Assembly: GCA_963977015.1 (NCBI GenBank)
Contig: CAXBMO010000023.1
Location: 34,205-98,204, forward strand
DNA length: 64,000 bases
Direction: 5' to 3'
DNA from: an uncultured bacterium
Lineage (GTDB): Bacteria > Verrucomicrobiota > Verrucomicrobiia > Verrucomicrobiales > DEV007
Below, one piece after another: positions 48,507-64,000 of the stretch. Position numbers and translations under genes: made by a program. The number at the start of each line of letters is the position of its first letter. The first letter of the stretch is position 1. The notes under the pieces were generated by a model, which searched no databases, was not told the DNA's origin, and was given only the letters and a program-made list of their open reading frames with translations.

Positions 48507-50768
48507 TCAGTTGGCCGCGGGAACTTTGGTGCTGTCCTGGATCGCCGTGATCGCCTTCGCTCCGCGCTTTTCAATGGAGATAAAATCCATCAACACGTCG
48601 ATTGCTTCGCGTTTGACCGGGCCGAACCCATGAGGTGGCTCCAAAGCCTTCGCTTCTTCGTCTTTCTCGGCAATATCAGTCATCATTCCGCTTAATTCCT
48701 GAGCGGAAACCTCCGAGAGCAACTTCAACTCAGGCTCATCGACTCGATCAAGGGTGAGACTGTAGCTTTTGAAGAGCCCCTTTTCAGTCGCCTTGATTTT
48801 CGCGAACCGCTCTTTGATGTCCTCTCTGCGTTTTTCATCTCTGGCGTCTTCTTCCTTGATCTCCCTTTTTCGGACTTCGCGATTGAGAGAAATTTGATTC
48901 TCTTCCTTCCGTTTTTCGAACCGATTGGTCTCGGAGACAATCCATTGGAAATCGACATTCTTTTCTCGACGAGCCGCTGAGCTGGCCTTGAGAACTTCAA
49001 TTGGCAAGGGCTGCTTTCGAAAGAGCGCAAACTTCTGCTTTTGAACCTCGTCGTAAGGAAGCGAATCTTTGAGGGATGCTTCACCCAATTCCATTGCGTC
49101 CGTGATGGAGGGAAGAATGATATCTGGAACCACCCCTTTGAGCTGAGTTGATCCACCGGCGATCCGGTAGAACTTCTGGATCGTCAGTTTCAGTGCGCCG
49201 GCCTGATTGGAATTTCCGGGCAACAAGAGGGAGAATCCGCTGGTTGTTACGGGCAGCAGTTGCTGAACCGTTCCCTTGCCAAACGTTGAACGATCACCCA
49301 CGACCACGGCGCGTTGGTAATCCTGTAGTGCGGCGGCAAGAATCTCACTGGCAGACGCACTGGCCTTGCTGGTCAGGACAACCATGGGGCCATCATAAAC
49401 AGGAACACGGGCTGGAGAAATCTTTACGTCAGTTTGCTCCCGGCTGTCTTTGGATTGAACGACGGGGCCTCGGGGAATGAAAAGGCCGGTCAAATTGATC
49501 GCTTCCTCCAGCGAACCGCCTCCGTTCTGCCGGAGATCAACGATCAGTCCTTCGATTCCCTCTTTCTTCAGGCGCAAGAGCAAACGCTTGGTATCGCGCG
49601 TGACACTGGTCTGACCGGACTGCATATCGCTGTAGAAGGATGGGAGATCAATCCAGCCCAGCTTAATGGTGCGGCCATCTGGAGCCTTGGTTTCGATCAA
49701 CTCAGCGCGGGCGAGGCTTTCCTTGAGGTCGACCTGATCCCGCTTGATCATAATCACGGCGGTCGCGGAGGGATCCTGGCCGTTGGGAATGAGTTTCAGG
49801 CGAACGTGAGAGCCTTTCTTGCCGCGAATCAAATCAACGACCTTCTGGAGATTCATATGCTTGATGTCGGTCAAAGCGCCTTTGGTGCCCTGGCCCACGC
49901 CAATGATCTTGTCTCCGACTTGGAGTTCGCCGGCCTGATGAGCCGGGCCACCGACGACCAGTCCCCGGATTTCGGCGTAGCCTTCATCGGTCATGCTCAA
50001 CAAGGCGCCGATACCTTGGAGATTCTTCGACATCTGAATCTGAAAATTCTCATATTCTGACTGAGTGAAGTAATCAGAATGGGGGTCGTAAGTATGGGAC
50101 AGGCTCTTCAGGTAAAACCCGGCGATATCCTCGGTGGTATTGTCCTTGAGGGAATCCAGAATTCGCTCGTAGCGCTTTCGAACGAGGACGGATGGCTCGT
50201 CCATCTGTTCGAGCTCCGCGGCGACCTTGTCATCCGCCGGCATCTCGCGTCGCATCACTTCCTGGAGCATTTCTCCCTCGATGATATTTGACCAGATTCG
50301 ATCGGCGTCCGCTGCGTTCTTGGCCCAATCGGCTTTCTTACGGCTCAGTTGCATCTTCCGATTGGAATCGAAAGTGAACTCCGTCGATTCCAGATGCTTC
50401 TTAATCCAGTTTACGCGGTTAATGACCCGATCCGTGTAGATGTAGTAGATATCGAGAGCCGGGGAGATGTCTTGAAGCAGGAGTTTTTCGTCCAGTCTCG
50501 TCTCGTAGCGTGCCTTGAAAGCATCAATGTCAGACTGGAGAAAATAGAGCCGCCCACCGTCCAGAAACTCGAGGTAGTTTTCGAGCAATTTCTTCGAGAC
50601 CTCGTCGTTGATGGTCTGGTCGTTGTAATGCTCGTGTTGGAGAAGGGTCGCGACCTTGGCTGCAACTTGACCATATTCAACCGCTCGAGCTTGGGGAGCT
50701 ACTGTGAAGGCTAAGGTGACGAATAACAACGTGAGCGACGTGAATCGCGATCCGGGAAGATTTGCCAT
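48507..50768 (-). CDS. prc: Carboxy-terminal processing (tail-specific) protease, S41
   Basis: YDPHSDY, PDZ GIGA, DLRQNGGGSL, SASASEI, GKGTVQ, QKFYRIAGGSTQLKGVVPDI. Confidence 0.92.
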   Translation of the reverse strand: MANLPGSRFTSLTLLFVTLAFTVAPQARAVEYGQVAAKVATLLQHEHYNDQTINDEVSKKLLENYLEFLDGGRLYFLQSDIDAFKARYETRLDEKLLLQDISPALDIYYIYTDRVINRVNWIKKHLESTEFTFDSNRKMQLSRKKADWAKNAADADRIWSNIIEGEMLQEVMRREMPADDKVAAELEQMDEPSVLVRKRYERILDSLKDNTTEDIAGFYLKSLSHTYDPHSDYFTQSEYENFQIQMSKNLQGIGALLSMTDEGYAEIRGLVVGGPAHQAGELQVGDKIIGVGQGTKGALTDIKHMNLQKVVDLIRGKKGSHVRLKLIPNGQDPSATAVIMIKRDQVDLKESLARAELIETKAPDGRTIKLGWIDLPSFYSDMQSGQTSVTRDTKRLLLRLKKEGIEGLIVDLRQNGGGSLEEAINLTGLFIPRGPVVQSKDSREQTDVKISPARVPVYDGPMVVLTSKASASASEILAAALQDYQRAVVVGDRSTFGKGTVQQLLPVTTSGFSLLLPGNSNQAGALKLTIQKFYRIAGGSTQLKGVVPDIILPSITDAMELGEASLKDSLPYDEVQKQKFALFRKQPLPIEVLKASSAARREKNVDFQWIVSETNRFEKRKEENQISLNREVRKREIKEEDARDEKRREDIKERFAKIKATEKGLFKSYSLTLDRVDEPELKLLSEVSAQELSGMMTDIAEKDEEAKALEPPHGFGPVKREAIDVLMDFISIEKRGAKAITAIQDSTKVPAAN

Positions 50769-51001
50769 AGAACTCAAGGTAAAGGGGGATTGGGTTTCCT
50801 TTAGATCGAAGGAGTCACCAAGTGATTCGATCACTGTACACAAATCGTTGGCGTTGACACGAATTTTCCGCCGAAATCAGCGTTGAGGAAACTCAAAACC
50901 TATTCCTTTCCCCACTGGAAACGGCGACCCGGGAAAAATGCGGGAATCCTTCCGGACAGAGGGAGTTCCGTGCCAAGAAACAGACTGTGGAAAGCCAAAT
51001 T

Positions 51002-51541
51002 TCAGGCAGAAGTGACAGAAAGTTTTCTGTGCTCTTCAATTTGCTGAAAAATTTGAGGCAATCTCTGGGAGGCTTCAGCGGGATCTTCGAAATCCCATTT
51101 CTCTCCAGCAGGTGCAGCGGGAGCTGGAACCGCGGTTTCAAGACTCGCCTCCTCATTCGTCATTTCCTCAAAAATTTCGTGCGGAAGATGAAGGAATTCT
51201 TCGAATTCATAGCCGTCGACTTCGGGATCCGTAACCTCGGCCAAAGTGTCAGGATTCGAAAGTGCGCCATTAAAAATCTCAGAGCCATGGGCAACCAGCC
51301 AACCTCGAAATGCTTCAAAGGCTTCTTCACTGCCTCCTGAATTCAGCAAACTGGAGGCTCCCCACAGATCCCACGTGTAGGCAAGGTTCAGGCAGGTGTC
51401 GAGTTGTTGCTGGAAGCCGATAATTTCATCGACCGGAAGTTGGCGAAGAGATTCTCCGAGCACATCGAGCTGGGTGTCGGGATCGCCGTTCGACTCCGCA
51501 ATCGAGCCGTCAATGAGTTGCCAAAAGCGTGATTGATCCAT
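51002..51541 (-). CDS. DUF4240-like protein
   Basis: MDQSRFWQLID...LWGASSLLNSGGSEEAFEAFRGWLVAHG. Confidence 0.75.
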   Translation of the reverse strand: MDQSRFWQLIDGSIAESNGDPDTQLDVLGESLRQLPVDEIIGFQQQLDTCLNLAYTWDLWGASSLLNSGGSEEAFEAFRGWLVAHGSEIFNGALSNPDTLAEVTDPEVDGYEFEEFLHLPHEIFEEMTNEEASLETAVPAPAAPAGEKWDFEDPAEASQRLPQIFQQIEEHRKLSVTSA

Positions 51542-51567
51542 TTGGGAAACGAAGGTTCGGTCGGGAA

Positions 51568-52104
51568 TTAAAAGGGGATTTCGTCGTCTTCCTCGCCCAC
51601 ATCGAGAGGGCCTCCTCCTCCACCACCTCCACCTGAGGGCGGTTGTGGTGATTCAGGTTTCGAAGAGTAATCGTTGCCGCCATCACCGTAGCTCTTTTCC
51701 TGAGGTGGGGCGTAATTGCCTCCTCCTCCGCCTTGTTGATAGTTGCCGCCTCCTCCGCCGCCGCCGTCACTCTTGCCGCCAATCAGTTGCATTGATTCTC
51801 CAACGACTTTCAGCCGGCTGCGATTCTGGCCCGTGGCCTTGTCCTGCCAAGTGTCCATCTGCAATCTGCCTTCAATGAAGACGGGACGTCCCTTTTGCAA
51901 ATATTGTCCGGCAACTTCCGCCGTCCTTCCCCAGAGCGTGACATCGACAAACGTCGTCTCTTCTTGTCTTTCGCCACCGTCGCCCGAAAAATAGCGGTTC
52001 ACCGCGAGACCGATATCGGTAACGGCGGTTCCCTTCGGGGTATAACGAACTTCGGGATCACGGGTCAAATTCCCCATGATCATCACTCTGTTAAAAGAGG
52101 CCAT
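51568..52104 (-). CDS. ssb: Single-stranded DNA-binding protein
   Basis: NRVMIMGNLTRDPEVRYTP, Gly-rich linker, DDEIPF tail. Confidence 0.97.
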   Translation of the reverse strand: MASFNRVMIMGNLTRDPEVRYTPKGTAVTDIGLAVNRYFSGDGGERQEETTFVDVTLWGRTAEVAGQYLQKGRPVFIEGRLQMDTWQDKATGQNRSRLKVVGESMQLIGGKSDGGGGGGGNYQQGGGGGNYAPPQEKSYGDGGNDYSSKPESPQPPSGGGGGGGGPLDVGEEDDEIPF

Positions 52105-52186
52105 GACCAATACTTACGGCGTTTTTTGATCTTGGCTAGTGATTTTGGTACTTTGTGAGGGTCGGATTGGTGAGGTTCCCCACGTC

Positions 52187-53128
52187 TCAGTCCCCCAAAA
52201 GCGCGCCGAGATGGGAGTTGGTTGCCGAAATCAACCCGGCGACCCTGTAGCCGCCCTCCAAGACCGAAACAACGCGACCGTCGGCCGAAGCGGTCGCCGC
52301 TTCCAATACCAGTTTCGTCAACTCCGCAAAATCATCGTCCTCCAGGCGAAACTTTCCCAGAGGGTCGCCAATTCGTGAGTCAAACCCGGCTGAGATCAAA
52401 ATCAATTCCGGTTCAAATTTTCGCATCGCCGGCAGAAAGCCCTTCGTGAATGCCAACGAGAGATCTTTCATGCCGGTTCCGGCAGGGAAGGGGGCATTCA
52501 GGATCGTCCCTTGTCCCAGCCCGTCACCATCTTCCTGCCTTGTCCCGGTCCCCGGATACCAAGGGTATTGATGGGTGCTGAAGTAAAAGACAGAAGGGTC
52601 CGTCCAGAAGATATCCTGGGTTCCATTTCCGTGATGGACATCCCAATCCACGATCGCAACCCGTTCAATACCGTATTTCTTCTGGGCATAGCGAGCGCCA
52701 ATCGCAATGTGGTTGAAGACGCAAAAACCCATCCCGCGATCGTGTGTGGCATGGTGTCCCGGCGGACGCATCGCACAAAATGCGTTGTCGACTTCGCATT
52801 GAAAAACCGCATCGATCGCGTTCATGACGCCACCGGCGGCATTTTGAGCAACTTCAAACGACTTCCTGCTTACGATGGTATCGCCCGTGCTCAACTGCCT
52901 GGCGCCGGCTTCGATTTCTTTTCGGGCGAGCGCGACGTAACCCGGATCGTGGGCCAGCGCCAATTCCTCGAGGCTGGCTTTGCGAAGCGAAAGCGGAGTC
53001 GTTCGATCATGAAACCCAGCTTCGTGAAGGGCACTGCGGACGGACTTCAGGCGCAGGGCGGATTCTGGGTGTCCAGGGCCGGTATCGTGTTCCTGAAAGA
53101 TGGGGTCTGTGAGAAGTCCCGTGGGCAT
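52187..53128 (-). CDS. Histone-deacetylase-family (AcuC/AphA-like) amidohydrolase
   Basis: GHPES, RPPGHHA, GFCVFN, DWDVHHGNGTQ, SAGFD, VLEGGY. Confidence 0.93.
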   Translation of the reverse strand: MPTGLLTDPIFQEHDTGPGHPESALRLKSVRSALHEAGFHDRTTPLSLRKASLEELALAHDPGYVALARKEIEAGARQLSTGDTIVSRKSFEVAQNAAGGVMNAIDAVFQCEVDNAFCAMRPPGHHATHDRGMGFCVFNHIAIGARYAQKKYGIERVAIVDWDVHHGNGTQDIFWTDPSVFYFSTHQYPWYPGTGTRQEDGDGLGQGTILNAPFPAGTGMKDLSLAFTKGFLPAMRKFEPELILISAGFDSRIGDPLGKFRLEDDDFAELTKLVLEAATASADGRVVSVLEGGYRVAGLISATNSHLGALLGD

Positions 53129-53271
53129 CGGGCGGGAAACTAGCACCGAACTTGAAGGGTCCACAAACGACAAATCCGATTTCGCGGATTCGGCTTTGCC
53201 AGGGGGGGCATGCCCCGGATGGAAATTTTCTGGCACTTGGAAATCCCGGAGCCCGAGGTAGATTCGCCAGG

Positions 53272-54675
53272 ATGTTACGCAAAACCAAAATTATCGCGAC
53301 ACTCGGCCCCGCAACCGATTCACCCGAAATGATTGGCAAGCTGGTTAAGGCGGGCGTCAATATTTTCCGGCTCAACATGAGTCACGCCAACCACGACTGG
53401 GTGAGGAGCGTGACCGGTGCGATTCGCGCCGAGTCGGAGAAGCACAAACTCGGCGTCGCAATTTTGATGGACCTCCAAGGGCCGTCGATACGGACTGGAG
53501 ACGTCGACTCTCCGATCCAGCTCAACCCGGGAGATGTCCTCGAGATTCGGATGGAGGGAGCGGAAGCGGAAATGGCGCGATCAACGACCGTAAACTATCC
53601 AGGGCTGTTGGGGGATGTGAAAGAGGGGGAGACCATGTTGATCGACAACGGCGTGATTCATGTAAAGGTCGAGGAGCGGCGGTCAGATCGATTGATCTGT
53701 CAGGCACTGACGGAAGGCGAGATGGGCAGCCGGCGTCACGTGAACCTTCCCGGCATCCAGGTCAGTCTTCCCGCGATGACGGAAAAGGATCAGGGAGATG
53801 TCGCCCTGGCTGCCGAGCTGGGGCTGGATTTTATCGCGCTGAGTTTTGTTCGGGATGCCGAAAGTGTGAACCTGCTTCGCCGAACGATGGATGAAATGGG
53901 ATTTCACGCCAAGATCGTTGCCAAGATCGAGGATCAGGAAGCGGTGCGGAAAATTGACGGAATCATCCTGGCTGCCGATGCCGTTATGGTGGCGCGTGGC
54001 GACCTGGGAATCGAAGTTCACGCGGAGGAACTCCCCATCGTCCAGCGAAACATTCTCAGAAGATGTGCCGAACTGGGCCGAAAGGTCATTGTCGCCACTC
54101 ACATGCTGGAGTCGATGATCGAAAATCCGGTTCCGACACGCGCGGAAGTGACCGACATCGCCAACGCAGTTTTTGAGCAGGCAGACGCGATCATGCTGAG
54201 TGGAGAAACCAGCGTTGGGGCCTATCCGGTCAAGTGTATCGAGATGTTCGACCGGATCGCTAAGCGAATGGAGCGTGAACCCGGTGCCAATTACTGTGAA
54301 AACGCCGAACTCAAAAACGAGAAACAGAAATCGGTGATGTCCGCCGTTGCGCTCGCCAATTCGATTGAGGATTCGTCGATCGTTGTTTTCACCGCAAGAG
54401 GCGTGATGGCGAACTACGTTGCGCATCAACGCCCGAAAAAGGCATCCATCTTCGCCTTCACCGGAGACCCCTCGGTTTGTCAGGCCTTACACCTCAATCG
54501 CGCGGTCTTTCCTTTCCAGACCAATCTGGAGAGAGATGCGAGAGAGCTGATCGAAGATGCCGTTGGGATGCTTCGACGGGAGGGCCTGATCGCCGAAGGC
54601 AGTTCGGTGGTGATCCTCAGTGACGTTTTGGTCGGAGAATTCGTGATCGATTCGATTCTTCTTCAGAAAGCCTGA
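53272..54675 (+). CDS. pyk: Pyruvate kinase
   Basis: RKTKIIATLGPA, RLNMSH, DLQGP, AKIE, MVARGDLG, ATHMLESM, MLSGET. Confidence 0.97.
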   Translation: MLRKTKIIATLGPATDSPEMIGKLVKAGVNIFRLNMSHANHDWVRSVTGAIRAESEKHKLGVAILMDLQGPSIRTGDVDSPIQLNPGDVLEIRMEGAEAEMARSTTVNYPGLLGDVKEGETMLIDNGVIHVKVEERRSDRLICQALTEGEMGSRRHVNLPGIQVSLPAMTEKDQGDVALAAELGLDFIALSFVRDAESVNLLRRTMDEMGFHAKIVAKIEDQEAVRKIDGIILAADAVMVARGDLGIEVHAEELPIVQRNILRRCAELGRKVIVATHMLESMIENPVPTRAEVTDIANAVFEQADAIMLSGETSVGAYPVKCIEMFDRIAKRMEREPGANYCENAELKNEKQKSVMSAVALANSIEDSSIVVFTARGVMANYVAHQRPKKASIFAFTGDPSVCQALHLNRAVFPFQTNLERDARELIEDAVGMLRREGLIAEGSSVVILSDVLVGEFVIDSILLQKA

Positions 54676-54680
54676 TTGAC

Positions 54681-55970
54681 CTAGGTCGCCTGGTTGCGCC
54701 GTGCTTCCTGCTTCAGGCGCAATCCGTTCAATCGGATAAATCCGGTCGCATCGTCCTGATTGTAGGCCTCTTCGCCTTCGTTTTTCTCCATGGAGGCGGT
54801 GTCATCATCGTAGAGGCTGAATTGCGAGCGTCGTCCGGCGGTCATCACGTTACCTTTGTAAAGCTTCAGGCGGACTTCGCCGGAAACCGTTTTCTGAGTT
54901 TCCGTAACCATCGCCTGCAAGGCTTCCCGTTCAGGTGCAAACCAGAATCCGTTGTAAACCAACTGCGCATACTTGGGAATCAGCGAGTCACGGAGCAGTG
55001 CGACCTCACGATCCATCGTCAGGCTTTCGATCTGACGATGCGCCGCCAAAAGAACGGTTCCTCCGGGCGTTTCATAAACTCCGCGGGATTTCATCCCGAC
55101 AAAGCGGTTCTCAACCATGTCGATCCGGCCAATCCCGTGTTTGCCGGCAAGAAAGTTGAGCACTTTCATCACGGTGTAGGGATTCAACAGTGTGTAATCG
55201 CCGGAACTGCCTCTCCCGCTCAAACCCAGCTTTCCAAGAATGTCGTCAAGAGCGGCGGTTTTCAGCCCGACACAGTCGCCCTTCTCGAAGAGCAACTCGA
55301 CATATTCAGGGGTATCTGGCGCATCCTCCGGCGAGACGCTCAGCACATACATGTCGCGGCTTTCCGCCGTGGTCGCATCAAACCAGGGATCTTCCAAAAC
55401 GCCGCTTTCAAAGCTGATATGAAGCAGATTGCGATCCATACTGTAGGGCTTGGAGGCAGACGCCTGGACGTCGATTCCGTGTTCGCGGGCGTAGTCGATC
55501 ATCTCGGTCCGGCCCGGAAAGGTCTCCCGGAATTTGGCGTCTCTCCAAGGCGCAATGACCTCGACATCAGGCGCCAGAGCCGCTGAGGTCAGCTCAAACC
55601 GAACCTGATCGTTCCCTTTGCCGGTCGCTCCGTGCGCGATCGCGTCTGCTCCTTCCTGTTTGGCGATGTCCAGCATTCCCTTCGTGATGCACGGTCGGGC
55701 AATACTCGTACCCAGCAGATACTGGCCCTCATACAGAGCGTTGGCCTGGAACATCGGGAAGATGTAGTTTTCCGCGAAATCCTCGCGCAGATCCCCCAGA
55801 AAGTAGCGACTGGCACCGGTCGCGAGCGCCTTTTCTTCCAGTCCATCCAGTTCCTCTTCCTGACCGACATCCGCACAATAGGCGATCACTTCGGCGTCGT
55901 AAGTCTTGCCGAGCCACTTCAGGAGAACGGACGTGTCGAGGCCGCCCGAATATGCGAGAACAATTTTCAT
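54681..55970 (-). CDS. argG: Argininosuccinate synthase
   Basis: [32 protein letters not shown]. Confidence 0.97.
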
Positions 55971-56022
55971 GTGGCCGCGATCGTAAGCCGACCCGATCGG
56001 GAATGCAAATGCCGGTGAAAAG

Positions 56023-56050
56023 TTGCAATCATGCGGGATTCCGGTATGTT
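56023..56050 (+). promoter_or_regulatory. Candidate sigma-70 promoter for ssrA
   Basis: TTGCAA-16-TATGTT. An alternative TTGTCA-19-TATGAT lies at 56049-56079. Confidence 0.35.
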
Positions 56051-56091
56051 GTCAGTCGGATTTAGAAACCATCTATGATCCATTTTTAAAT

Positions 56092-56443
56092 GGGGGCGTT
56101 CTGGTTTCGACTTATGGTTTAATACGCAGATAGCATGTCGAGGATGATTCGTTGGCCTCGTAAAAAATCGGATCAAAACAACTTAAATGCAGACCAAAAT
56201 CTAGCATTGGCAGCCTAAAGTCGCTGCCCGTCGTCCTCCCAATGCCTGTTAGGGAGTGCCGGCGCCGATAACAGGCTAGTCAGGAATTCGGGTGCCCGGG
56301 AATTCTGGCGAAAACAAACAGGACAATCGGAAGCGAATCGCCCGTCGGCTGACAGTCCGCTTCTTAAATTCAAGGCCGAATAAGCATGTAGAGGTTTGTG
56401 TAGACGGTCATGAGGACAGGGGTTCGACTCCCCTCGCCTCCAC
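56092..56443 (+). ncRNA. ssrA: tmRNA; tag peptide ADQNLALAA encoded at 56189-56218
   Basis: 5' end GGGGGCGTTCTGGTTTCGAC. 3' T-arm AGGGGTTCGACTCCCCT followed by CGCCTCCA, which pairs with GGGGGCG and includes the G-U alanine determinant. Resume context TTAAAT|GCA and tag ending LAA-TAA. Confidence 0.95.
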
Positions 56444-56638
56444 TTTTCTCATTATCAGGCAGTTGGGTTGATTCTTAGGGCTCGGTAAGACTCACACTAG
56501 GGTTGTCTGCCGATATCGTCTTCGGGTCGAAGGGGGGGGATTTGCTGATTTTCGCGCTTGCGCGGTCTCTTTGGTAGGCTGTTTCCTGGGCGTCCCTCTC
56601 AAAACACGGGCAGCGTTGTCTTGGGGTAGCGCAAAAGG

Positions 56639-56890
56639 TGGGCGGCAGGTTACCGAGCGATTGGTGAGGACGCTCTTCGTTGTAAATGATCATCCATTCG
56701 TGAACGAGATCACGAACCTGGGTAAGTGATTCGAAGAGGTGGGCATCAAGGACTTCGCGACGGAAAGTGCGATTGAATCGCTCGATGTAGGCGTTTTGTG
56801 TTGGCTTGCTGACTGAATGTGGTGGAGGCGAACCTGGTTACTCTCACACCAAGCCGGCAGTTTGGAGGAGATGAGTTCCGGGCCATTATT
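56639..56890 (-). pseudogene. IS3-family transposase (integrase core) remnant, truncated and frameshifted
   Basis: NGPELISSKLPAWCESNQVRLHHIQ, a 1-nt shift near 56811, then KPTQNAYIERFNRTFRREVLDAHLF...WMIIYNEERPHQSLGNLPP. Confidence 0.88.
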
Positions 56891-56900
56891 GGGAAAAGTT

Positions 56901-58529
56901 CTATTTTTTGAGACCCATGGTTAAAGCGAGAGTGTCGAGGTGATGTTCTGTAAATTGGGCCCCACGAATATCAATGTTCTGAATAGAATCTAGAAATGGC
57001 GGAAGGGTGAGAGGGCGTGGCGCTTCTGGAAGTAACACAGCTATGAGTTGAAGGCCTCGTTCCACCTTCTGGATGATCAGTGATTCAATCTCTTCCTCAT
57101 GCCATTTACCCAAACCACTGCCACCGTAGAAGATGATGGCACCACGGCATCTTGCGATAGTTTTCTGGAGTTCCCTCACCCAGCGAACACACGGTTTTAA
57201 GTTCCGTTCGTCCATCCACGCATCCAAACCTTTGTCGATTAGGCGTTGGTAAAATATCCTGACAATCGGCTTGTCATTGCTGTTGTGGCTAAGAAAAATC
57301 TTGGAAGATACCGACGATGACTCTTTGTCGGTTGAGGGGTGATATTGGGAATCCGTTGGGGAGTGGCGGGAACGAGTCACCATCAAATCTTCGACAAACG
57401 CGTTCCAACTTTCGGTGCCTTCTTCTCCCATTGAGCTGTGGACCAATTGAAAAATTCCGTCGGTCTTAAAAAAGGACACTCTACCCTGGCGGGCGTTGGC
57501 CGTTCTTTCGGCGAAGTGTCGCAATTCCTCCAGAGCATCATCCCGATCTGCCCCTCTAGTTGCAAACGCAATTCCAGCCCAGGAATTGGCAATCCATTCG
57601 AGGCGCTTATGTCCGTCTATCTCCTGTTTCGCCCGCTTGCCTGTGCATTGCTCGAGAATCGTTTCAAATCGTTCTCGCAAAACCGAGCGGTCGATTGACT
57701 TCTCATCCAGATTATAGAGAAAGCATTTCTGAGCGGCATCACAAATGTCGATGTTAATTTCAAGGAAGAGAGAATCGAGCCCCTGGTCCCGCCGCATTGT
57801 AATGGCGAATTCAGTTTCAGCCATCGCCTCCTTGAAACCATCAATATCACGGTCGACTTGGGCGGATTGAGCCATGGCGAGAGATCGAGTCGCGAGGTAG
57901 CGGTAAGGCGGGAAAATCATATTGACCGAGGGATCCCCAAAGTCGACAAAGCCGGTGAACTTTTCGGGAGGCGCTTCACTTCTTATGCCGGGAAGAAGGA
58001 TTTCGATGTCCGATGACAACGCAACCGGAGCTTTCAGATTGTTCGATAGTCGGCGATAGTGTCTCAGGCTTCTGAGGTTATAATCGTTTCGTTGAATTGG
58101 ATCCCTGGTTCTTGAAGATTCCATTTCATAGTATTTCCCAAGAATATAGGAAGCTGCGGCAGCCCACGAAATGGATGATTTTCTCGAGATCCTGTCCAGT
58201 TGTCCCCAGATGGCTTCATCATTTCGCTGGAGCCCACCTTTCAGATACATGAATGCTTTAAGCAGTAGGCAGGCGTAGCTGGGATCCGAATCAAGTGGCA
58301 GTTTCCTGCTAACGGTGTCGAGCTTTCCAGGGTCGAGGTAATCGTGCTCGCGCTCGCCTCCGCGGGGTTCGGGAACAAAAACCGTTCCGTCGAAACCTGC
58401 CTTCTTCAGTTGTTTGATCATTTCCGGCCGCCATGAGTCAACCGCATCGGTTCTCGGAGTTGGCCCAGCCAGGAAAATCGACTGACGAAGCGATTCGGGC
58501 GTGTCCTCTGGCGCGTAGACGAGTTCCAT
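56901..58529 (-). CDS. Chimeric protein: partial nucleoside 2-deoxyribosyltransferase-like N-terminus, helical region, C-terminal TIR domain
   Basis: Residues 1-66 contain SIFLAGPTPR...SWR...GTVFVPEPR...DYLD. The C-terminus is KIFLSHNSNDK...AWMDERNL...GLGKWHEEEI...LIAVLLP...LPPFL (TIR_2-like). Confidence 0.75.
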   Translation of the reverse strand: MELVYAPEDTPESLRQSIFLAGPTPRTDAVDSWRPEMIKQLKKAGFDGTVFVPEPRGGEREHDYLDPGKLDTVSRKLPLDSDPSYACLLLKAFMYLKGGLQRNDEAIWGQLDRISRKSSISWAAAASYILGKYYEMESSRTRDPIQRNDYNLRSLRHYRRLSNNLKAPVALSSDIEILLPGIRSEAPPEKFTGFVDFGDPSVNMIFPPYRYLATRSLAMAQSAQVDRDIDGFKEAMAETEFAITMRRDQGLDSLFLEINIDICDAAQKCFLYNLDEKSIDRSVLRERFETILEQCTGKRAKQEIDGHKRLEWIANSWAGIAFATRGADRDDALEELRHFAERTANARQGRVSFFKTDGIFQLVHSSMGEEGTESWNAFVEDLMVTRSRHSPTDSQYHPSTDKESSSVSSKIFLSHNSNDKPIVRIFYQRLIDKGLDAWMDERNLKPCVRWVRELQKTIARCRGAIIFYGGSGLGKWHEEEIESLIIQKVERGLQLIAVLLPEAPRPLTLPPFLDSIQNIDIRGAQFTEHHLDTLALTMGLKK

Positions 58530-58657
58530 CCCACGAATTAGATCATGGCAACGCTTTGCTCACAAACTAATCATGCCGTTCCTTGCCTCCCCCTGACTCA
58601 ATTCTTGTCTCGACGTCGCCAATTTGTTACCTAACATACCTTGGAATTTGTGAACTG

Positions 58658-59977
58658 ATGGCGGATGAAACGGGCAGTCGAAACGCATACGAGGTTTTTC
58701 TGAGCTTTAGCCGGAAAGACTACGAATCCGTCGTCCGTTTCAAGCAGCTGCTTGCCGAGGTTGGCATTCCTGTCTGGTTCGATGAAGAACGCATCGAAGG
58801 TGGCGAGGAATGGCGCGAAACCATTCCCAATGCCATCGAAAGGTCGAAAGTTGTGATCCTGGCGGCAACCCAGAACAGTGTCGAATCGGCCGTCGTTCAG
58901 CGCGAGATCCTTTACGCCCGGCGCAATAACACCGCCGTCGTCTTCGTTTACCTGGATGCCCCCAAATCCGTCACCCTCCCCAAAAAAGTCGACTTCGAGT
59001 TCGGTAATGACCATTACCTGACTCAGGACCCGCAGGCAGACGCCGTTGCTTTCGCCATCCTTCGGGCGCTGGCCAAAAACCACGGCGTCAGCTCCACGGT
59101 CTACGAAGACCACATCGCCCGGCTCAATGCCCGCAATGCCGAAACGCTGCAACAGATCGACTTGCTGCCCGATCTGCTCGACCGCACCGGACAGACGCGG
59201 GCCTACCAGATATTCGTATCCAAGGGCAAAGCCAAGCTGACGGGTAGCCGCCCCTGGTTGTTTCTCATCCATGGGCCCAAACCGCAGCTCCTTCCCGATT
59301 TCCGCCGGGCTTTGGTTCGCTATCACCTCAAAACCGTTCTCGAAGAAGAAAACTTCGACTGTTGCGCCCCGAAACGGGAGAAACCGATCGAAATCACCCG
59401 TGGCGAGGTTCGCAGCCGCGATCGCGAAGCTCTAACATTTGCCTTGGCCGAGCGGTTCAAGCTCCCGCGCTCGGCGAGTGAAACTCAAATTGCGCAGTTC
59501 TTTTCGAATCATGCGCAGAGCTGCCACGTAGCCGTCTTCCACGTGAATCTGGCAGAAGAGGACTACGGCGCCTTCAAGAAGTTCATCCGGTTTTACCACA
59601 AGTATTGGGAGGATTTTCCTCCGGTTGGCAATGCCGCCGTGCTTGTCAAGTTGGCGGTCAGTTATTCGCAACCCCGCCGGGGCAGATCCTCGCGAATCGG
59701 ACGTCATTGCGAGGCGCTTAAGAAAAGCAAGCTCTTTGCCAACGGCGGCAGCTGCGCATTGGAGGGGCTGACGGACGTCCCGGACGACCAGGCGTTTCTC
59801 TGGAGCGGTCAGGCACCGGTGCGCCAGTTGCTCGATAAACTGCGCCTCAGCGAGGCAGATGCCGATGCCGCGATTCGTAAAATTTACCGGGAACACGGCA
59901 AAGAAGAACTCCCCATGAGTCACCTCGCCCCGGCGCTGCGTGAGTGGCTTATCGAACAACTCTACAAACAATCCTGA
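58658..59977 (+). CDS. TIR domain fused to an inactive-STAND (iSTAND)-like domain
   Basis: VFLSFSRKD...VWFDEERIEGGEEWRETI...SVESAVVQREI (TIR), then LPDLLDRTGQ...PWLFLIHG...F (recalled iSTAND pattern, no intact Walker A). Lies directly upstream of MoxR. Confidence 0.75.
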   Translation: MADETGSRNAYEVFLSFSRKDYESVVRFKQLLAEVGIPVWFDEERIEGGEEWRETIPNAIERSKVVILAATQNSVESAVVQREILYARRNNTAVVFVYLDAPKSVTLPKKVDFEFGNDHYLTQDPQADAVAFAILRALAKNHGVSSTVYEDHIARLNARNAETLQQIDLLPDLLDRTGQTRAYQIFVSKGKAKLTGSRPWLFLIHGPKPQLLPDFRRALVRYHLKTVLEEENFDCCAPKREKPIEITRGEVRSRDREALTFALAERFKLPRSASETQIAQFFSNHAQSCHVAVFHVNLAEEDYGAFKKFIRFYHKYWEDFPPVGNAAVLVKLAVSYSQPRRGRSSRIGRHCEALKKSKLFANGGSCALEGLTDVPDDQAFLWSGQAPVRQLLDKLRLSEADADAAIRKIYREHGKEELPMSHLAPALREWLIEQLYKQS

Positions 59978-59995
59978 TTCCCCAAACTTTTCCCC

Positions 59996-60979
59996 ATGAA
60001 ATACGCCGAAACCGGAACTCCCAAACCCGCCGTCTATCCCGACGGAACCCAGGAAAGCTACGATCCCGATTCCCGGCTCATCGCCGCGGTCAATGTCGCC
60101 ATCCTTCTCCGTAAGCCGCTTCTCCTCACCGGCGAGCCCGGCACCGGCAAAACCTCCCTCGCCAGAAGCGTTGCCGCCGATCTCGGAAAACGCCTCGTCG
60201 AGTTCTACACCAAATCGGTCCACGAATCCCGCGACCTACTCTACCACTACGACGCCATCGCCCATTTCCGCGATGCTCAGATCAAGGGGCTGGACGTTTC
60301 CGCCAAAGCGTTGCCTCACCTCCGCGCCCAGGGGCTTGGCGAAGCGATTCTTCGGGCCAATCCGCTCACCGATACCACCAAGGCACTCCTCAAAGGGAAG
60401 GAACTCGGCACCGCTCCCGACGCCTCCGTTGTCCTCATCGACGAAATCGACAAAGCCCCGCGCGATTTCCCGAACGACCTGCTTCGCGAAATGGAACAGT
60501 TCGAGTTCGACATCCCGGAACTGGGCGACGAGGCCAGGTTCACTATTTCCGCCGAATCCCTCAAACCGGTCGTCATTGTCACCAGTAATTCGGAGAAAAA
60601 CCTCCCCGAAGCCTTCCTTCGCCGCTGTGTCTATCACGATATCCAATTTCCCAGTGGCGAAGCCGCCAAAACCCGGATGCAGAACATTGTCATGAAACGG
60701 GTCAAAGGTCTTGAGGACGGTGCGCCGTGGTTACCCCTCGCGGTCGATCTCTTCCTTCACGTACGGTCCAGTTTTGGCAATCGGCTTGCCAAGCCACCGG
60801 CTACCGGGGAGTTGCTCGACTTGGCACGGGTTCTCCAGGGCACGCCAGGGGTGAACGGTAACCTCAAATCCCAGGCGTCCATACCGATGCTCAGTGATGT
60901 TTCGGGAGCGGTCTTTAAAACGAGTGGTGATCTCGCTCTGACCGACGAAATCCTAAAATCCTGGGTTAGCGGCTCCTGA
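59996..60979 (+). CDS. MoxR-family AAA+ ATPase (ternary conflict-system type)
   Basis: AVNVAILLRKPLLLTGEPGTGKT, DLLYHYDAIAHFRDAQ, VLIDEIDKAPRDFPNDLL, TSNSEKNLPEAFLRRC. Confidence 0.92.
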   Translation: MKYAETGTPKPAVYPDGTQESYDPDSRLIAAVNVAILLRKPLLLTGEPGTGKTSLARSVAADLGKRLVEFYTKSVHESRDLLYHYDAIAHFRDAQIKGLDVSAKALPHLRAQGLGEAILRANPLTDTTKALLKGKELGTAPDASVVLIDEIDKAPRDFPNDLLREMEQFEFDIPELGDEARFTISAESLKPVVIVTSNSEKNLPEAFLRRCVYHDIQFPSGEAAKTRMQNIVMKRVKGLEDGAPWLPLAVDLFLHVRSSFGNRLAKPPATGELLDLARVLQGTPGVNGNLKSQASIPMLSDVSGAVFKTSGDLALTDEILKSWVSGS

Positions 60980-60997
60980 TCCCAGCATCCTGAGATT

Positions 60998-63523
60998 GTG
61001 CCTGCCGAACCTCCAAAGCCGCCGCCGTCCGACCTGCTCCGCGAACGCCTCCCGCGTTTCTTCGATGCGTGGCGCGAGCAAACGCGTCTTGCCGACCCGC
61101 GGCCGCTGACCGAGGCTCACGAAGTCGCCCTCGCGCTGGTGGCGAGAGGGGATCTGGAATCAGATGACGGAACGCCGGAATCCATCTTGGCCGATCACCT
61201 CCACCCGGTCCTGGTCAAAACGCCGGAAGATGACGCGCTGTTTCGGGATCTTTGGAAACGTTACGTGGGGGAAACCGAAACCCGACCCAAAGAAATCCTC
61301 ACGGATACCTCTATGGAGCAATCCGGCAACGTTTCCGGGGCGAGGCGTCTCGGCTCGTTTCGCTCGCGCTGGCTCGTTGTCTTTCCGATCGTGGCGCTGT
61401 TGGTTGGTGGCGGCTTTTGGCTTTGGCCGATCTTCTTCGCCAAACCACCGGTGGAGCCGGTTGTGGAGACGTCTCCACCGCCCGCGCCCGACCCAGGCAA
61501 AGCCCCCGAACTCCCTCCCGCGCCAAAGCCAGTCGAACCAGTTGGGGACCCCAACGATCCCTTCATCCTCCCGGACAACTTCGTCGACTGGTCGGTCAAA
61601 CCCGAAGTCGTCCCTTTCCTCCGCGAGGTCCCCTGGTGGGAAACCCTCCTTACTTCACCGTGGACGTTTTACCCGCTCGTCGCGGCTCTGATCGCTTTAG
61701 TCGTCTTCATCCTCGTCGTCTGGCAACGGGCCTGGTTCAGCGATCAGGTCAACTACCTCACCCGTAACCTTGGCAAATCCGGGCAACGTGGCAAAAGCGA
61801 GCAGTTCTTTCTCGGTCTCAAACGCGAAGGCTGGGACGCTTCCGGATTGCTCACGGGCGTGGTCTCCCGTCTTCGCCGTCACCAGGAAGAGGAAACTGGG
61901 CGGATCGACTCGCGTCGCACGATTCGCGTCAGCATCCGCAAAGGCGGCTACTTCACCCCAGTCCACGCCAAACGCCCCGAAACTCCGCAATACCTCTTCC
62001 TCGTCGAAGAACGTCACCGGCACGATCACCTGGGCCGAATGCTCACCCAGTGGATCGCCGCGCTGCGCAATCATGGTGTCAGTGTCGATGAGTTTCGTTT
62101 CCAGGACAGCCCGGAACAGGCCTACCAAGCTCCCGAACAAGAGGATATTACCCTCGCGCCCGATTTCGTTCCTCAACTCGTGCCGCTGCGCGATCTCAGT
62201 GTGCGTTATGCCCGTCACCGTCTCGTCCTCTTTGGTCAGGACCTGGAACCATCCGATCCTTACACCGGCGAAGCCGAGCCGTGGGCCGAGTTGCTCGACC
62301 AATGGGAAACCCACCGCGCCATCCTCACCCCGCCTGGCAGCCATGGCGATCTCGGTCTGGGCCAATTGCGCGAACGCGGCTGGACCATCTTCGATTTCTC
62401 CGAAACCGGCGTTCGAGCCCTCGGCCTCTGGGTCGCGGGCGAGGGAATTCCCGGTTCCGCCCAGAACGGTTCCAAACCGCCGGGCACCTTCGCCGACGAC
62501 GTTGACCTCTGGCTCGGAAGCGTCCCGCCCTCGCCGGGCCGGCTCGATTCCGCCGTCGCCGAATTGGAAACGTGGCTCGAGCCTGAAGGCATGCGCTGGC
62601 TCCGCTCCTGCGCCGTCTTCCCGCTCGTGGACTGGCACCTCACCGCCTACTTGGGCGATGGATTGCGCAAGCTCCGTAGCCCGGGGCACCCGGCCTGTGC
62701 CACGAAGTCTCCCGCCACTCCATCCGCGCCTCTCACTCAGGGCACGGGCCGGGAGACCCATGCTACCCCTGAGGACACCCTCTGGAAAATGTCCCAACTC
62801 CCCTGGCTCCGCGAGGCCCGTATGCCCGAGTGGTTCCGCCAGCGTCTCCTCGCCGACCTTCATCCCGACGACCGCGACGCCACCGGCGCCCTAATTTATC
62901 TGGCTCTCCGTCAGGACAAACTCGGCGGCGAAGAACACGCCGTCGAAGTTATCGCCCAAAAACCCAAACTCATTCGTCGATTAAGCCAACGCCTCTGGCG
63001 GCGTCTCATCAAGAAATACCCCGAACTGCGCGATGAACTCGCCCTTACCTCGGTAGGTGGTGCCAGCAAATTCCGCCTTCCTCCCTGGATTTCGGCCAGC
63101 CTTAATTGGGCTTGGCCGATTGGACTAGCAATCCTGACTGCTGGCGGAATCTGGATGGGGTGGCAGGGATTTGGGAACGGGGATTTGGACGGTCGGGAGC
63201 CGGTCAAAGCTAGGCCGATGGGGGAGATCGTCTCCTCGCGCACCGCTGAAAAAGACGAATTTGTTTTTGTGCCTCCGGGCCGTGTCGATGGGGAAGAGAT
63301 TGAATTCCCCTTCTGGATCGCCCGAAAGGCCGTTGATTTGGAGGGCGCTGCACCGCAAGCCTATGTCAAAGAACGCTTGGAGCGGGAATGGGGCAACGGA
63401 AGCTTGTCACCGGGGTGGATCTACGCAGAACCAAGTGCCAGTGAGAAAGCGCATGCCACCCGCCGAGATAGCGTAAAAGTACAGTCTGTCACAAAACCTG
63501 AACCCGATTTGCTTCATGAGTAA
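60998..63523 (+). CDS. Membrane-anchored vWA-like partner of MoxR with a short, possibly degenerate C-terminal effector
   Basis: Helical N-terminus (LHPVLVKTPEDDALF), two TM helices around a Pro-rich linker, IDSRRTIR...GGYFTP...PQYLFLVEE...DH, WLRSCAVFP..W.LT.YLG, LPWLREARMPEWFR, a third TM helix, then FVFVPPG...FWIARKAV. Confidence 0.72.
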   Translation: MPAEPPKPPPSDLLRERLPRFFDAWREQTRLADPRPLTEAHEVALALVARGDLESDDGTPESILADHLHPVLVKTPEDDALFRDLWKRYVGETETRPKEILTDTSMEQSGNVSGARRLGSFRSRWLVVFPIVALLVGGGFWLWPIFFAKPPVEPVVETSPPPAPDPGKAPELPPAPKPVEPVGDPNDPFILPDNFVDWSVKPEVVPFLREVPWWETLLTSPWTFYPLVAALIALVVFILVVWQRAWFSDQVNYLTRNLGKSGQRGKSEQFFLGLKREGWDASGLLTGVVSRLRRHQEEETGRIDSRRTIRVSIRKGGYFTPVHAKRPETPQYLFLVEERHRHDHLGRMLTQWIAALRNHGVSVDEFRFQDSPEQAYQAPEQEDITLAPDFVPQLVPLRDLSVRYARHRLVLFGQDLEPSDPYTGEAEPWAELLDQWETHRAILTPPGSHGDLGLGQLRERGWTIFDFSETGVRALGLWVAGEGIPGSAQNGSKPPGTFADDVDLWLGSVPPSPGRLDSAVAELETWLEPEGMRWLRSCAVFPLVDWHLTAYLGDGLRKLRSPGHPACATKSPATPSAPLTQGTGRETHATPEDTLWKMSQLPWLREARMPEWFRQRLLADLHPDDRDATGALIYLALRQDKLGGEEHAVEVIAQKPKLIRRLSQRLWRRLIKKYPELRDELALTSVGGASKFRLPPWISASLNWAWPIGLAILTAGGIWMGWQGFGNGDLDGREPVKARPMGEIVSSRTAEKDEFVFVPPGRVDGEEIEFPFWIARKAVDLEGAAPQAYVKERLEREWGNGSLSPGWIYAEPSASEKAHATRRDSVKVQSVTKPEPDLLHE

Positions 63524-63945
63524 AATTATCGGTTTCGCGTTAGCCTCATCGATAGTCGCAGTCATTTGTTTACTTGGGATTGCAATTGTCGGCTCAATGG
63601 TCGGGTTTTATGGGGACGCTTATTCCTTTAGTCCGTTTCTTCGTGTGATCGGTGATGAAACAGTCCTAAACGAGTGGGTTCAACGCAAGAGCAACCACAG
63701 TAACCTTGAGCTACCCGTTGTGGCGTTATTACTGTTGGTGGACACAGTATTGGTAGTCGCCTCTTCGATTGTTATTGCGGGGTTATTCGATCTCACAGCT
63801 GTCTATACTTTTAGAGCTGTAAGTGTTGTGAGGGTTGGATGGTTTAGTGCGTTGGCTACAGCGTGCTGTGGAGTCGCTCAAAACGGACTAACTGTGTGGA
63901 TGGTATTCCGAGGCGTGACACTCGATTTAAGTGCGACTCAAACTT
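63516..63945 (+). CDS. Hypothetical membrane protein, apparently interrupted (frame stays open to the window end)
   Basis: ATG at 63516 overlaps the upstream gene end. MSKIIGFALASSIVAVICLLGIAIVG... with several hydrophobic stretches. Visibly lower GC than the upstream genes. Confidence 0.55.
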
Positions 63946-64000
63946 TGAACTTCCCCCGAAACGGTAGACATGCGGGGCTTGGCCTGAGACCATCAAAAAT
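63946..64000 (+). mobile_element. Probable IS3-family terminal inverted repeat / start of an IS
   Basis: TGAACTTCCCCCGAAACGGTAGACA resembles the 5'-TG...CCCC...GACA layout of IS3-family ends. The hydrophobic coding character of the upstream ORF stops near here. Confidence 0.5.

Follow-up and report, generated by a model that had tools for sequence, protein, structure and literature searches.

A recent in-frame gene exchange beside a TIR-iSTAND operon in the ssrA-side accessory region of a verrucomicrobial genome

The iSTAND-type MoxR-vWA ternary conflict systems were defined by comparative genomics (Kaur, Burroughs, Iyer and Aravind, eLife 2020, PMC7159879). In the passages of that paper that describe the class, an effector or signalling domain (TIR, DRHyd, a peptidase or EAD) stands at the N-terminus of the iSTAND (inactive STAND) protein, the MoxR ATPase carries no extensions, and the vWA protein has a CoxE-type N-terminal domain and transmembrane segments, FGS (FGE-sulfatase) being the commonest vWA-linked domain; TIR, DRHyd and Nudix are listed there among the nucleotide-related domains of these systems. 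Part of a second paper (PNAS 2024, PMC10907252) deals with vWA-CLec/FGS targets of ternary systems that are diversified by diversity-generating retroelements (DGR). No bench test of an iSTAND system was met in those passages of PMC7159879 or in those of related papers that were consulted, no search being aimed at that question. We analyzed the 7.5 kb that follow the tmRNA gene (ssrA) in an uncultured bacterium of the Verrucomicrobiales (GTDB lineage DEV007), where two TIR genes face each other: one heads a plus-strand operon of this type and the other lies on the minus strand. The region occupies positions 56,444 to 64,000 of a stretch of 64,000 nucleotides, called the window below, whose positions are used throughout.

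The reading that we favour, and regard as probable, is that these 7.5 kb are a small accessory patch edged by remains of insertion sequences (IS), in which two separate TIR conflict units have been made neighbours by recent recombination. The original prediction had described, after the tmRNA gene, a transposase relic, a minus-strand TIR gene and a plus-strand operon headed by a second TIR gene; all are present in this order, at or near the positions it gave, the operon encoding a TIR protein, an AAA+ ATPase and a large membrane protein, and the starts of the two TIR genes are indeed 128 bp apart (58530-58657). Both facing genes encode a TIR domain, as had been proposed (TIR_2 above cut-off in each). 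The window makes up the final 64 kb of a contig of 98 kb and closes with it, so that the far edge of the region lies outside view. The source genome (G000) is a bin of 51 contigs, 95% complete and with 2% contamination.

The minus-strand TIR gene is a chimera

In the minus-strand gene the first 66 codons come from a DRHyd-NUDIX gene, and the other 476, which follow them in frame, from a gene for a TPR-like solenoid with a TIR domain behind it. Its parts, and the region that separates it from the operon, are the following.

56901-58529, minus strand: TIR open reading frame (ORF) of 542 aa, uninterrupted (TIR_2 at residues 411-532, E 6.3e-16)
58331-58529, minus strand: 5' segment derived from a Nuc_deoxyri_tr2 (DRHyd)-NUDIX gene (its start codon and codons 1-66; identity to residues 1-67 of protein P0003, 75-76%)
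57360-58330, minus strand: TPR-like helical solenoid domain, residues ~67-390 (55% tblastn identity to locus L021 over residues 67-524; AlphaFold confidence, pLDDT, ~90)
56907-57305, minus strand: C-terminal TIR domain, residues ~409-541 (TIR_2; Foldseek probability 1.0 to PdTIR, BtTir, AbTir and BtpA)
58530-58657, between the divergent genes: intergenic region of 128 bp, inherited from a DRHyd-NUDIX / TIR-iSTAND arrangement (a public contig, X1, is identical across it)

In a word-based search, 50 proteins matched the first ~65 residues only, at 36-76% identity (most at ~48-66%). All of them carry Nuc_deoxyri_tr2, called DRHyd in the Aravind papers, and NUDIX is present in some as well; P0003 has both (PF15891 and PF00293). 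The rest of the gene was matched by one protein, P0002. A relative of this gene body was also sought in the GTDB species genomes by means of two peptide patterns, and one was found: an ORF of 618 aa at L021, in genome G340, 55% identical over residues 67-524 and with an N-terminal part of ~150 residues that the minus-strand gene lacks. At the DNA level, homology to the full-length DRHyd-NUDIX genes of G001, G207 and G340 covers 58361-58533, and homology to L021 runs from 58292 down to the end of the query at 57901. G340 contains both parent genes, at separate loci, and the source genome itself contains no full-length DRHyd-NUDIX gene.

The exchange is also visible in contigs of four public runs from two studies, which were placed on positions 56000-64000. 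Contigs from runs X2 (58256-58495) and X3 (58063-58535), both of the second study, bridge the chimeric joint without a difference. A contig of 514 bases from run X1, of the other study, is identical to the window over 58331-58708, a stretch that takes in DRHyd codons 1-66, all of the intergenic region and the beginning of the TIR-iSTAND gene, and then shows 136 letters unlike the window. When the 30 printed letters past 58331 are read by hand on the minus strand, the DRHyd frame goes on as YLDQVAWEKRHLD, where P0003 has YLDQVAWEKRLLD; 12 of 13 positions match. This continuation in the DRHyd frame indicates an unbroken DRHyd gene at the same locus in a co-occurring or closely related strain. 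Since both forms of the gene occur in public contigs with an identical shared flank, the exchange is recent and the breakpoint is fixed to one codon, codon 67 (58331/58330). The exchange is thus real, recent and in frame, and the minus-strand TIR gene gained its place because most of the DRHyd-NUDIX gene was replaced.

These contigs bear on a further explanation, namely that the arrangement arose as an artefact when the genome was assembled from a metagenome, no cell having the two TIR genes side by side. The division of the bin into 51 contigs, its 2% contamination and the shifts of G+C along the region (0.50 over the minus-strand gene, 0.57-0.66 over the operon, 0.47 at the end) would fit such an artefact. 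Against it stand the X2 and X3 contigs, which bridge the joint and come from a different study than X1, and other pieces that cross the start of the minus-strand gene, the X1 stretch of 58331-58708 running through the intergenic region into the plus-strand gene. Moreover, L039, a scaffold from a metagenome, is 100% identical to the window over 48658-61578, and may not be independent of the bin; it was the only identical scaffold of the metagenome scan, which otherwise returned one unrelated TIR. We consider an artefact extremely improbable, and largely refuted already.

In an AlphaFold (AF2) model of the minus-strand protein, for which 28 sequences were used, the N-terminal stub stays unfolded (pLDDT 37-57 at residues 1-64), the helical domain at 67-390 reaches ~90 and the TIR part 55-80. 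Rap/NprR-type and LGN TPR solenoids ranked first in VIA-align; the match to RapI (Z 15.8, 265 aligned residues, rmsd 3.4) is little above the chance level for helical repeats. Among 1.84 billion representatives the helical domain had 27 remote relatives, it matched no Pfam or PADLOC family, and it occurs in only 2 of 134 genomes of the family. Its partner domains among the 28 proteins were TIR in two cases, and a protein kinase, an alpha/beta-hydrolase and Mrr_cat in one case each, a mixture that, judged from these sequences, would be typical of a sensor module with variable effectors. A protein-atlas search gave unnamed clusters and one weak TPR lead (score 0.89), and a sequence search of the PDB with the minus-strand protein gave nothing at E <= 0.01.

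In having a helical-repeat domain followed by a TIR domain, the protein resembles SARM1 and the solenoid-plus-TIR NADases, and Foldseek ranked full-length SARM1 first (E 1.3e-4); the TIR part resembles bacterial TIR NADases, whose structures it matches at Foldseek probability 1.0. Unlike SARM1, it has no SAM domains, its solenoid is TPR-like and not shown to be ARM-like, and the whole-chain TM-score is ~0.2. The likeness to SARM1 is one of layout, not of descent. Glu478 and Glu480, in the motif KWHEEE, are kept in both of the two sequences compared.

The plus-strand operon and its relatives

The genes on the plus strand are listed below.

58658-59977, plus strand: TIR-iSTAND protein, 439 aa (TIR_2 at residues 13-104, 66.7 bits, E 3e-18; inactive STAND at ~173-320)
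59996-60979, plus strand: MoxR-like AAA+ ATPase, 327 aa (AAA 51.4 bits and AAA_5 46.7 bits, both above cut-off)
60998-63523, plus strand: membrane protein in the vWA position, 841 aa (VWA_CoxE 19.8 bits, cut-off 26.4, residues 284-336)
63516-63945, plus strand: fourth ORF, a multi-pass membrane protein of low G+C (0.47), overlapping the vWA stop by 8 nt and running into the end of an IS

The first three genes are co-directional and encode an N-terminal TIR-iSTAND, an extension-free MoxR-like AAA+ protein and a membrane protein in the vWA position with a CoxE-type lead-in, which is the ternary layout given in the class description of PMC7159879; as in that description, FGS (FGE-sulfatase) domains are found at the C-terminus in relatives of the window. 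Because of this layout the operon appears to belong to the described class, with the features of vWA and of the MoxR clade partly confirmed. The original prediction had named the three genes TIR-iSTAND, MoxR and vWA-like, which is supported for the first (TIR_2 match; PF19995 at 30.5 bits against a cut-off of 24) and in part for the other two. It had also taken the combination for an undescribed one, and this cannot be kept: the TIR-iSTAND, MoxR and vWA system is already laid out in those passages of PMC7159879. Unlike the systems described in them, the window has a vWA-position protein without FGS, with a vWA match under the Pfam cut-off and with no DxSxS seen.

The TIR-iSTAND gene starts at ATG 58658, a start common to its relatives P0054 and P0055. 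The iSTAND match (PF19995, E 5.8e-7, profile positions 3-144 of 163) was obtained with residues 121-439 scanned alone and was not reported when the whole protein of 439 aa was scanned. At what we presume to be the place of the P-loop, by reading rather than by alignment, the iSTAND part has LFLIHGPKPQ, without GK[ST]. A word-based search with the whole protein gave at least two relatives among the matches listed, which is no gauge of rarity: P0054 with 55% identity and P0055 with 70% over 47%. The motifs GKWHEEE and VVQRE, pointed out beforehand in the minus-strand and plus-strand proteins respectively, are present in the translations. Glu83 of VVQRE is invariant in all three sequences compared; by motif pattern, not by structural alignment, it and Glu478/Glu480 are presumed to be the catalytic TIR positions, in the helix after the third strand. 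By sequence, the plus-strand TIR matched AbTIR at E 1.3e-4, in an alignment that stops short of the Glu helix.

This TIR domain is also like ThsB of Thoeris: it matches ThsB_TIR (26.1 bits, cut-off 21.2) and several PADLOC ThsB models. Unlike Thoeris, the window has no ThsA match among the five proteins of the region, and the TIR domain is fused to iSTAND instead of being free-standing. The PADLOC scan of these five proteins gave ThsB-type TIR matches only, with no model for ThsA (SIR2 or Macro with SLOG) at E <= 0.1.

In the ATPase, Walker A (GEPGTGKT) and Walker B (LIDEID) are intact as read in the translation. The sole MoxR-specific model matching it is bpMoxR, at 25.1 bits, under the cut-off of 27. 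The feature that defines the MoxR clade is a helix-2 insert. The third protein has three hydrophobic segments (by reading of the sequence), the CoxE-type lead-in and a short extracytoplasmic C-terminal domain. It is collinear up to residue 841 with a protein of 1608 aa in G373, which then has three FGE-sulfatase stretches; the window protein thus ends where the FGS domains of that relative begin. P0084, from a second organism, is a vWA protein of 831 aa, 86% identical, so the short FGS-less form is not unique to the strain of the window. Several properties make the vWA identity of this third protein weak and tell against the operon as we read it. The VWA_CoxE match is weak and covers only positions 8-63 of 222 of the profile; the DxSxS metal site was not seen after the first strand (LFLVEERHRHD); a fold model of residues 244-700 has a mean pLDDT of 56; and Foldseek with this model gave no match at E <= 0.001, all matches being weak, with E >= 0.1.

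At the place where a vWA domain would carry DxSxS, a stretch LFLVxxRHRHDH is conserved in the clade (window 61988-62026, residues 331-343), with Asp343 invariant in nine sequences. Judged by this conservation, it may be an altered metal or peptide site.

The fourth ORF had no Pfam, PADLOC or NCBIfam family match, and no match in the related loci L017-L021, L045-L047 and L057-L061.

Relatives of the operon were sought through its MoxR protein, within the phylum. In a family-wide search of 134 genomes, MoxR relatives at E <= 1e-25 were present in eight, namely the source genome and seven others. Among 400 genomes sampled across the phylum outside the family, none was met at E <= 1e-30 besides that of the source genome, the window's own family not being among the families in the tally. 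By tblastn the order iSTAND, MoxR, vWA is found in G001, G373, G032 and G090, and MoxR with vWA in G026. Genes with an N-terminal TIR_2 stand 5' of MoxR in G032, G090, G026 and G079, and their iSTAND part is backed by tblastn in G032 and G090 only. According to tblastn and Pfam, the loci other than that of G001 are composed as follows.

G090 and G032: TIR-iSTAND, MoxR, vWA
G026: TIR-fronted gene, MoxR, vWA
G079: TIR protein, MoxR, FGE-sulfatase protein; no tblastn match to the iSTAND part of the window
G373: end of iSTAND only on the contig, MoxR, protein of 1608 aa

A decayed operon was observed in the congener G001, at a locus unrelated to ssrA (L017, G001:C11, 9874-14677). Its iSTAND gene is spread over three frames, there is no TIR, the vWA gene is split in two, and a trypsin-FGE-sulfatase gene and a transposase-like ORF lie downstream. 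In the same relatives (P0054/P0084 and G001), identity is 55-58% for TIR-iSTAND, against 82% for MoxR and 77-86% for the vWA-position protein. The lower conservation of TIR-iSTAND hints at faster change or at exchange of the first gene, as far as these identities can tell. In G032 (L018, G032:C165, 1519-1983) an ORF of 154 aa lies between MoxR and vWA, with a weak match to the 23S rRNA-intervening-sequence four-helix family (17.5 bits, cut-off 33.8); it has no counterpart in the window.

In two of the related MoxR loci, L060 (G027:C233, 227-6335) and L061 (G079:C142, 4977-9304), an RVT_1 reverse transcriptase gene adjoins genes for large FGE-sulfatase proteins and a MoxR gene; G027 also has an HRDC protein. 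By analogy, they look like diversity-generating retroelements aimed at a sensor domain. The reverse transcriptase beside FGE-sulfatase proteins in G027 and G079 is like the DGR-linked layout treated in the relevant part of PMC10907252. Unlike the systems of that part, the 7.5 kb in view contain neither an FGS domain nor a reverse transcriptase; more may lie past the IS at the contig end.

One module or two units

The original prediction had joined the two TIR genes into one co-regulated module. Results concerning the relatives of each unit do not bear this out. The relative of the minus-strand gene body at L021 stands without the operon: on its 10.8-kb contig there is no MoxR, vWA or iSTAND in the 8.2 kb upstream or the 0.8 kb downstream. 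The gene that did face the TIR-iSTAND gene, DRHyd-NUDIX, has been mostly replaced. A recurrence of the divergent arrangement was not found either: in none of the five related operons with a readable upstream side (G032, G090, G026, G079 and the decayed one of G001) does a divergent TIR gene, or any TIR or DRHyd gene, lie upstream. In its place there are an EamA transporter and a YhgA-type transposase, unnamed ORFs, a Uma2-like ORF (by reading) or nothing recognisable. The full-length DRHyd-NUDIX genes of G001, G207 and G340 have neighbours that vary by genome, and none of the three is within ~9 kb of such an operon, which weakens the link between DRHyd and the operon and has no bearing on the TIR gene. 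The idea of a new combined system is thus mostly unsupported, there being no evidence for a conserved two-TIR module, and recombination at an IS-edged hot spot best accounts for where the second TIR gene lies.

A rival reading would keep the two units as one module, in which the slot facing the TIR-iSTAND gene holds an exchangeable enzyme acting on the same nucleotide pool or signal, DRHyd-NUDIX or TPR-like-TIR, under a 128-bp control region common to both. The genes are divergent with starts 128 bp apart, the intergenic region is unchanged in every letter where the DRHyd gene is intact, and the fusion is in frame in an uninterrupted ORF; TIR, DRHyd and Nudix are, as said, all among the nucleotide-related domains that the passages of PMC7159879 list for these systems. 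Moreover, P0003 (DRHyd-NUDIX) and P0055 (the TIR-iSTAND relative) are each recorded on a contig of 4447 bases from one source, possibly the same contig, a hint of a pairing older than the strain. With none of the five related operons having a TIR or DRHyd gene upstream, with the distance of all three full-length DRHyd-NUDIX genes in GTDB relatives from such operons and with the TPR-like-TIR relative standing apart at L021, we hold a single module to be unlikely. It is a rather doubtful extension of the same thought that the slot is a swap slot for an accessory nucleotide enzyme that would tune the NAD+-derived output of the ternary system, with two forms in the natural population. If true, effector exchange would here be seen under way in a conflict system, and the TPR-like domain, with its TIR, kinase, hydrolase or Mrr partners, would point to a sensor family not yet described.

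We return to two separate units, against which some points must be set. Their independence is read from few genomes, with one relative of the minus-strand body (only 0.8 kb being visible on one side) and five operons. Both occupants of the slot facing TIR-iSTAND are nucleotide-acting, DRHyd-NUDIX before and TIR now, and the fusion is in frame, which is compatible with a functional link no less than with chance. For either unit, we infer NADase activity, sensing and defence from the sequences.

A different view of the minus-strand gene is that it is a dead by-product of rearrangement that makes no working protein, so that only the plus-strand operon matters, itself maybe decaying. The N-terminal 64 residues are, in the model, a non-folding stub that belongs to another fold, the ~150 residues that begin the L021 relative are missing, and the gene abuts a truncated IS. 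On the operon side, the same-genus copy in G001 is decayed (no TIR, frameshifted iSTAND, split vWA), the vWA protein of the window is without the FGS domains of its relatives, and the fourth ORF runs into an IS. These facts have to be balanced against 542 open codons and a helical and a TIR part that both model well (pLDDT ~90 and 55-80), the open frame being weak evidence either way because the exchange is recent. In some relatives the helical domain begins close to the N-terminus, as in P0058 (residue 11), so the lost N-terminal part is not always needed; and the 86% identical protein of 831 aa from a second organism (P0084) makes the short vWA form no peculiarity of this genome. We judge a dead gene very unlikely.

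Several observations concern the intergenic region and the loci of the relatives. A 12-nt direct repeat, AATTTGTTACCT at 58621 and AATTTGTGAACT at 58645, 24 nt apart, lies just 5' of the TIR-iSTAND start; it may be a regulator site, or chance. Within the 128 bp there is no consensus sigma-70 site and no inverted repeat, and promoter and terminator scans were not above shuffles. One X2 contig fits the window from 58659 on, the second base of the TIR-iSTAND start codon, and has 255 unlike letters before it, with the frame staying open through the last 30 of them; in another strain the TIR-iSTAND gene may have a third upstream context or an extended N-terminus. At L021 (4851-7112) a GYF-caspase-FGE-sulfatase protein is encoded divergently from the TPR-like-TIR gene. 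A Lipase_3-SLOG-CHAT protein of 1678 aa is encoded near the DRHyd-NUDIX gene of G340 (L047, G340:C289, 12141-17177).

The tmRNA side, the IS edges and the proposed functions

The landmarks at the two sides of the region are the following.

56092-56443, plus strand: tmRNA gene (ssrA), left landmark of the variable region (ARAGORN, tag peptide ADQNLALAA; Rfam RF00023, 170.3 bits, full length)
56475-56897, minus strand: IS3-type transposase relic (OrfB, rve C-terminus), frameshifted and 5'-truncated (rve_3 24.5 bits, cut-off 26.5)
63946-64000, plus strand: beginning (55 nt) of a multi-copy element of the IS3 family, found again at the ends of contigs C39, C17 and C42 and inside C11

Genes 5' of the tmRNA gene are ordinary ones as read from their translations (SSB, a deacetylase-like protein, pyruvate kinase and argG). 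The relic keeps ~110 residues of the C-terminus of an IS3-type OrfB, with one frameshift in a scripted three-frame reading, and abuts the stop codon of the minus-strand TIR gene; the source genome has no second copy of it. At the other side, the copy of the 55 nt inside C11 (C11:148027-148081; L065, 3528-3582) adjoins an HTH_Tnp_1 OrfA, with no OrfB. Word depth rises to 17-20 over 63946-64000 in runs X1 and X2, with several unlike loose ends before 63944-63946, and this multi-copy IS3-family element is the cause of the contig break at the window end. Other loose ends of public-run contigs unlike the window were observed at 56413, 56443-56448, 60120, 60156, 60294, 62050 and 63026; they are probably from other organisms or related systems.

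The ssrA flank was compared in two congeners. G002 has argG, the tmRNA gene and then, 53 nt beyond it, the 3' end of a glycosyltransferase gene, with no match anywhere in that genome to TIR-iSTAND or MoxR; the tmRNA gene of G001 lies in another context, with other genes to either side. The region is thus absent from the same site in G002. In the source genome, the orthologue of the G002 glycosyltransferase (87% identical) lies well inside another contig, in the middle of C8, and a rearrangement would therefore explain the difference no less well than a simple insertion.

The window is like tmRNA-targeted genomic islands in that its accessory DNA begins within ~30 nt of the 3' end of the tmRNA gene, where the congener has a different gene. 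Unlike such islands, it lacks an integrase gene, the 3' end of the tmRNA gene is not seen repeated elsewhere in the genome, and its edges are IS remains. In particular, the ORFs of 56444-64000 include no integrase family, only the transposase relic, and a blastn-short search of the 95% complete source genome with the last 60 nt of the tmRNA gene and the 10 nt beyond gave chance 13-15-mers only, the far edge lying beyond the contig end. Of the island that had been proposed at ssrA, the accessory nature therefore stands (G002 differs at the same site and has no TIR-iSTAND or MoxR match), and nothing points to an integrase-borne type (neither an integrase nor an att repeat was found). The region is thus accessory and mosaic, shaped by IS-linked rearrangement, and does not resemble a classic integrase-borne island.

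For the two units a working model can be proposed. In the operon, following the model given in the part of PMC7159879 on these systems, the membrane protein would sense a cue related to an invader, the ATPase would remodel the complex as a threshold switch, and the iSTAND scaffold would let TIR domains assemble and, as general knowledge of TIR NADases suggests, cleave NAD+. NAD+ would be depleted or a nucleotide signal made, and the infected cell would be arrested. The chimera would act alone, like other sensor-plus-TIR proteins, a ligand on the solenoid releasing the TIR NADase; it would now be driven from the start signals of the DRHyd gene.

The operon adds a member from a Verrucomicrobiales family to the iSTAND ternary systems, with an FGS-less protein in the vWA position. 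The TPR-like domain, with no Pfam or PADLOC family and with varied effector partners, could be a candidate stand-alone defence family. The more useful result is an evolutionary one: the chimeric and the unbroken form of the neighbouring gene are both present in public contigs. This exchange illustrates the shuffling of defence-type genes at IS-edged hot spots, and is a caution against taking neighbouring TIR genes as a single system.

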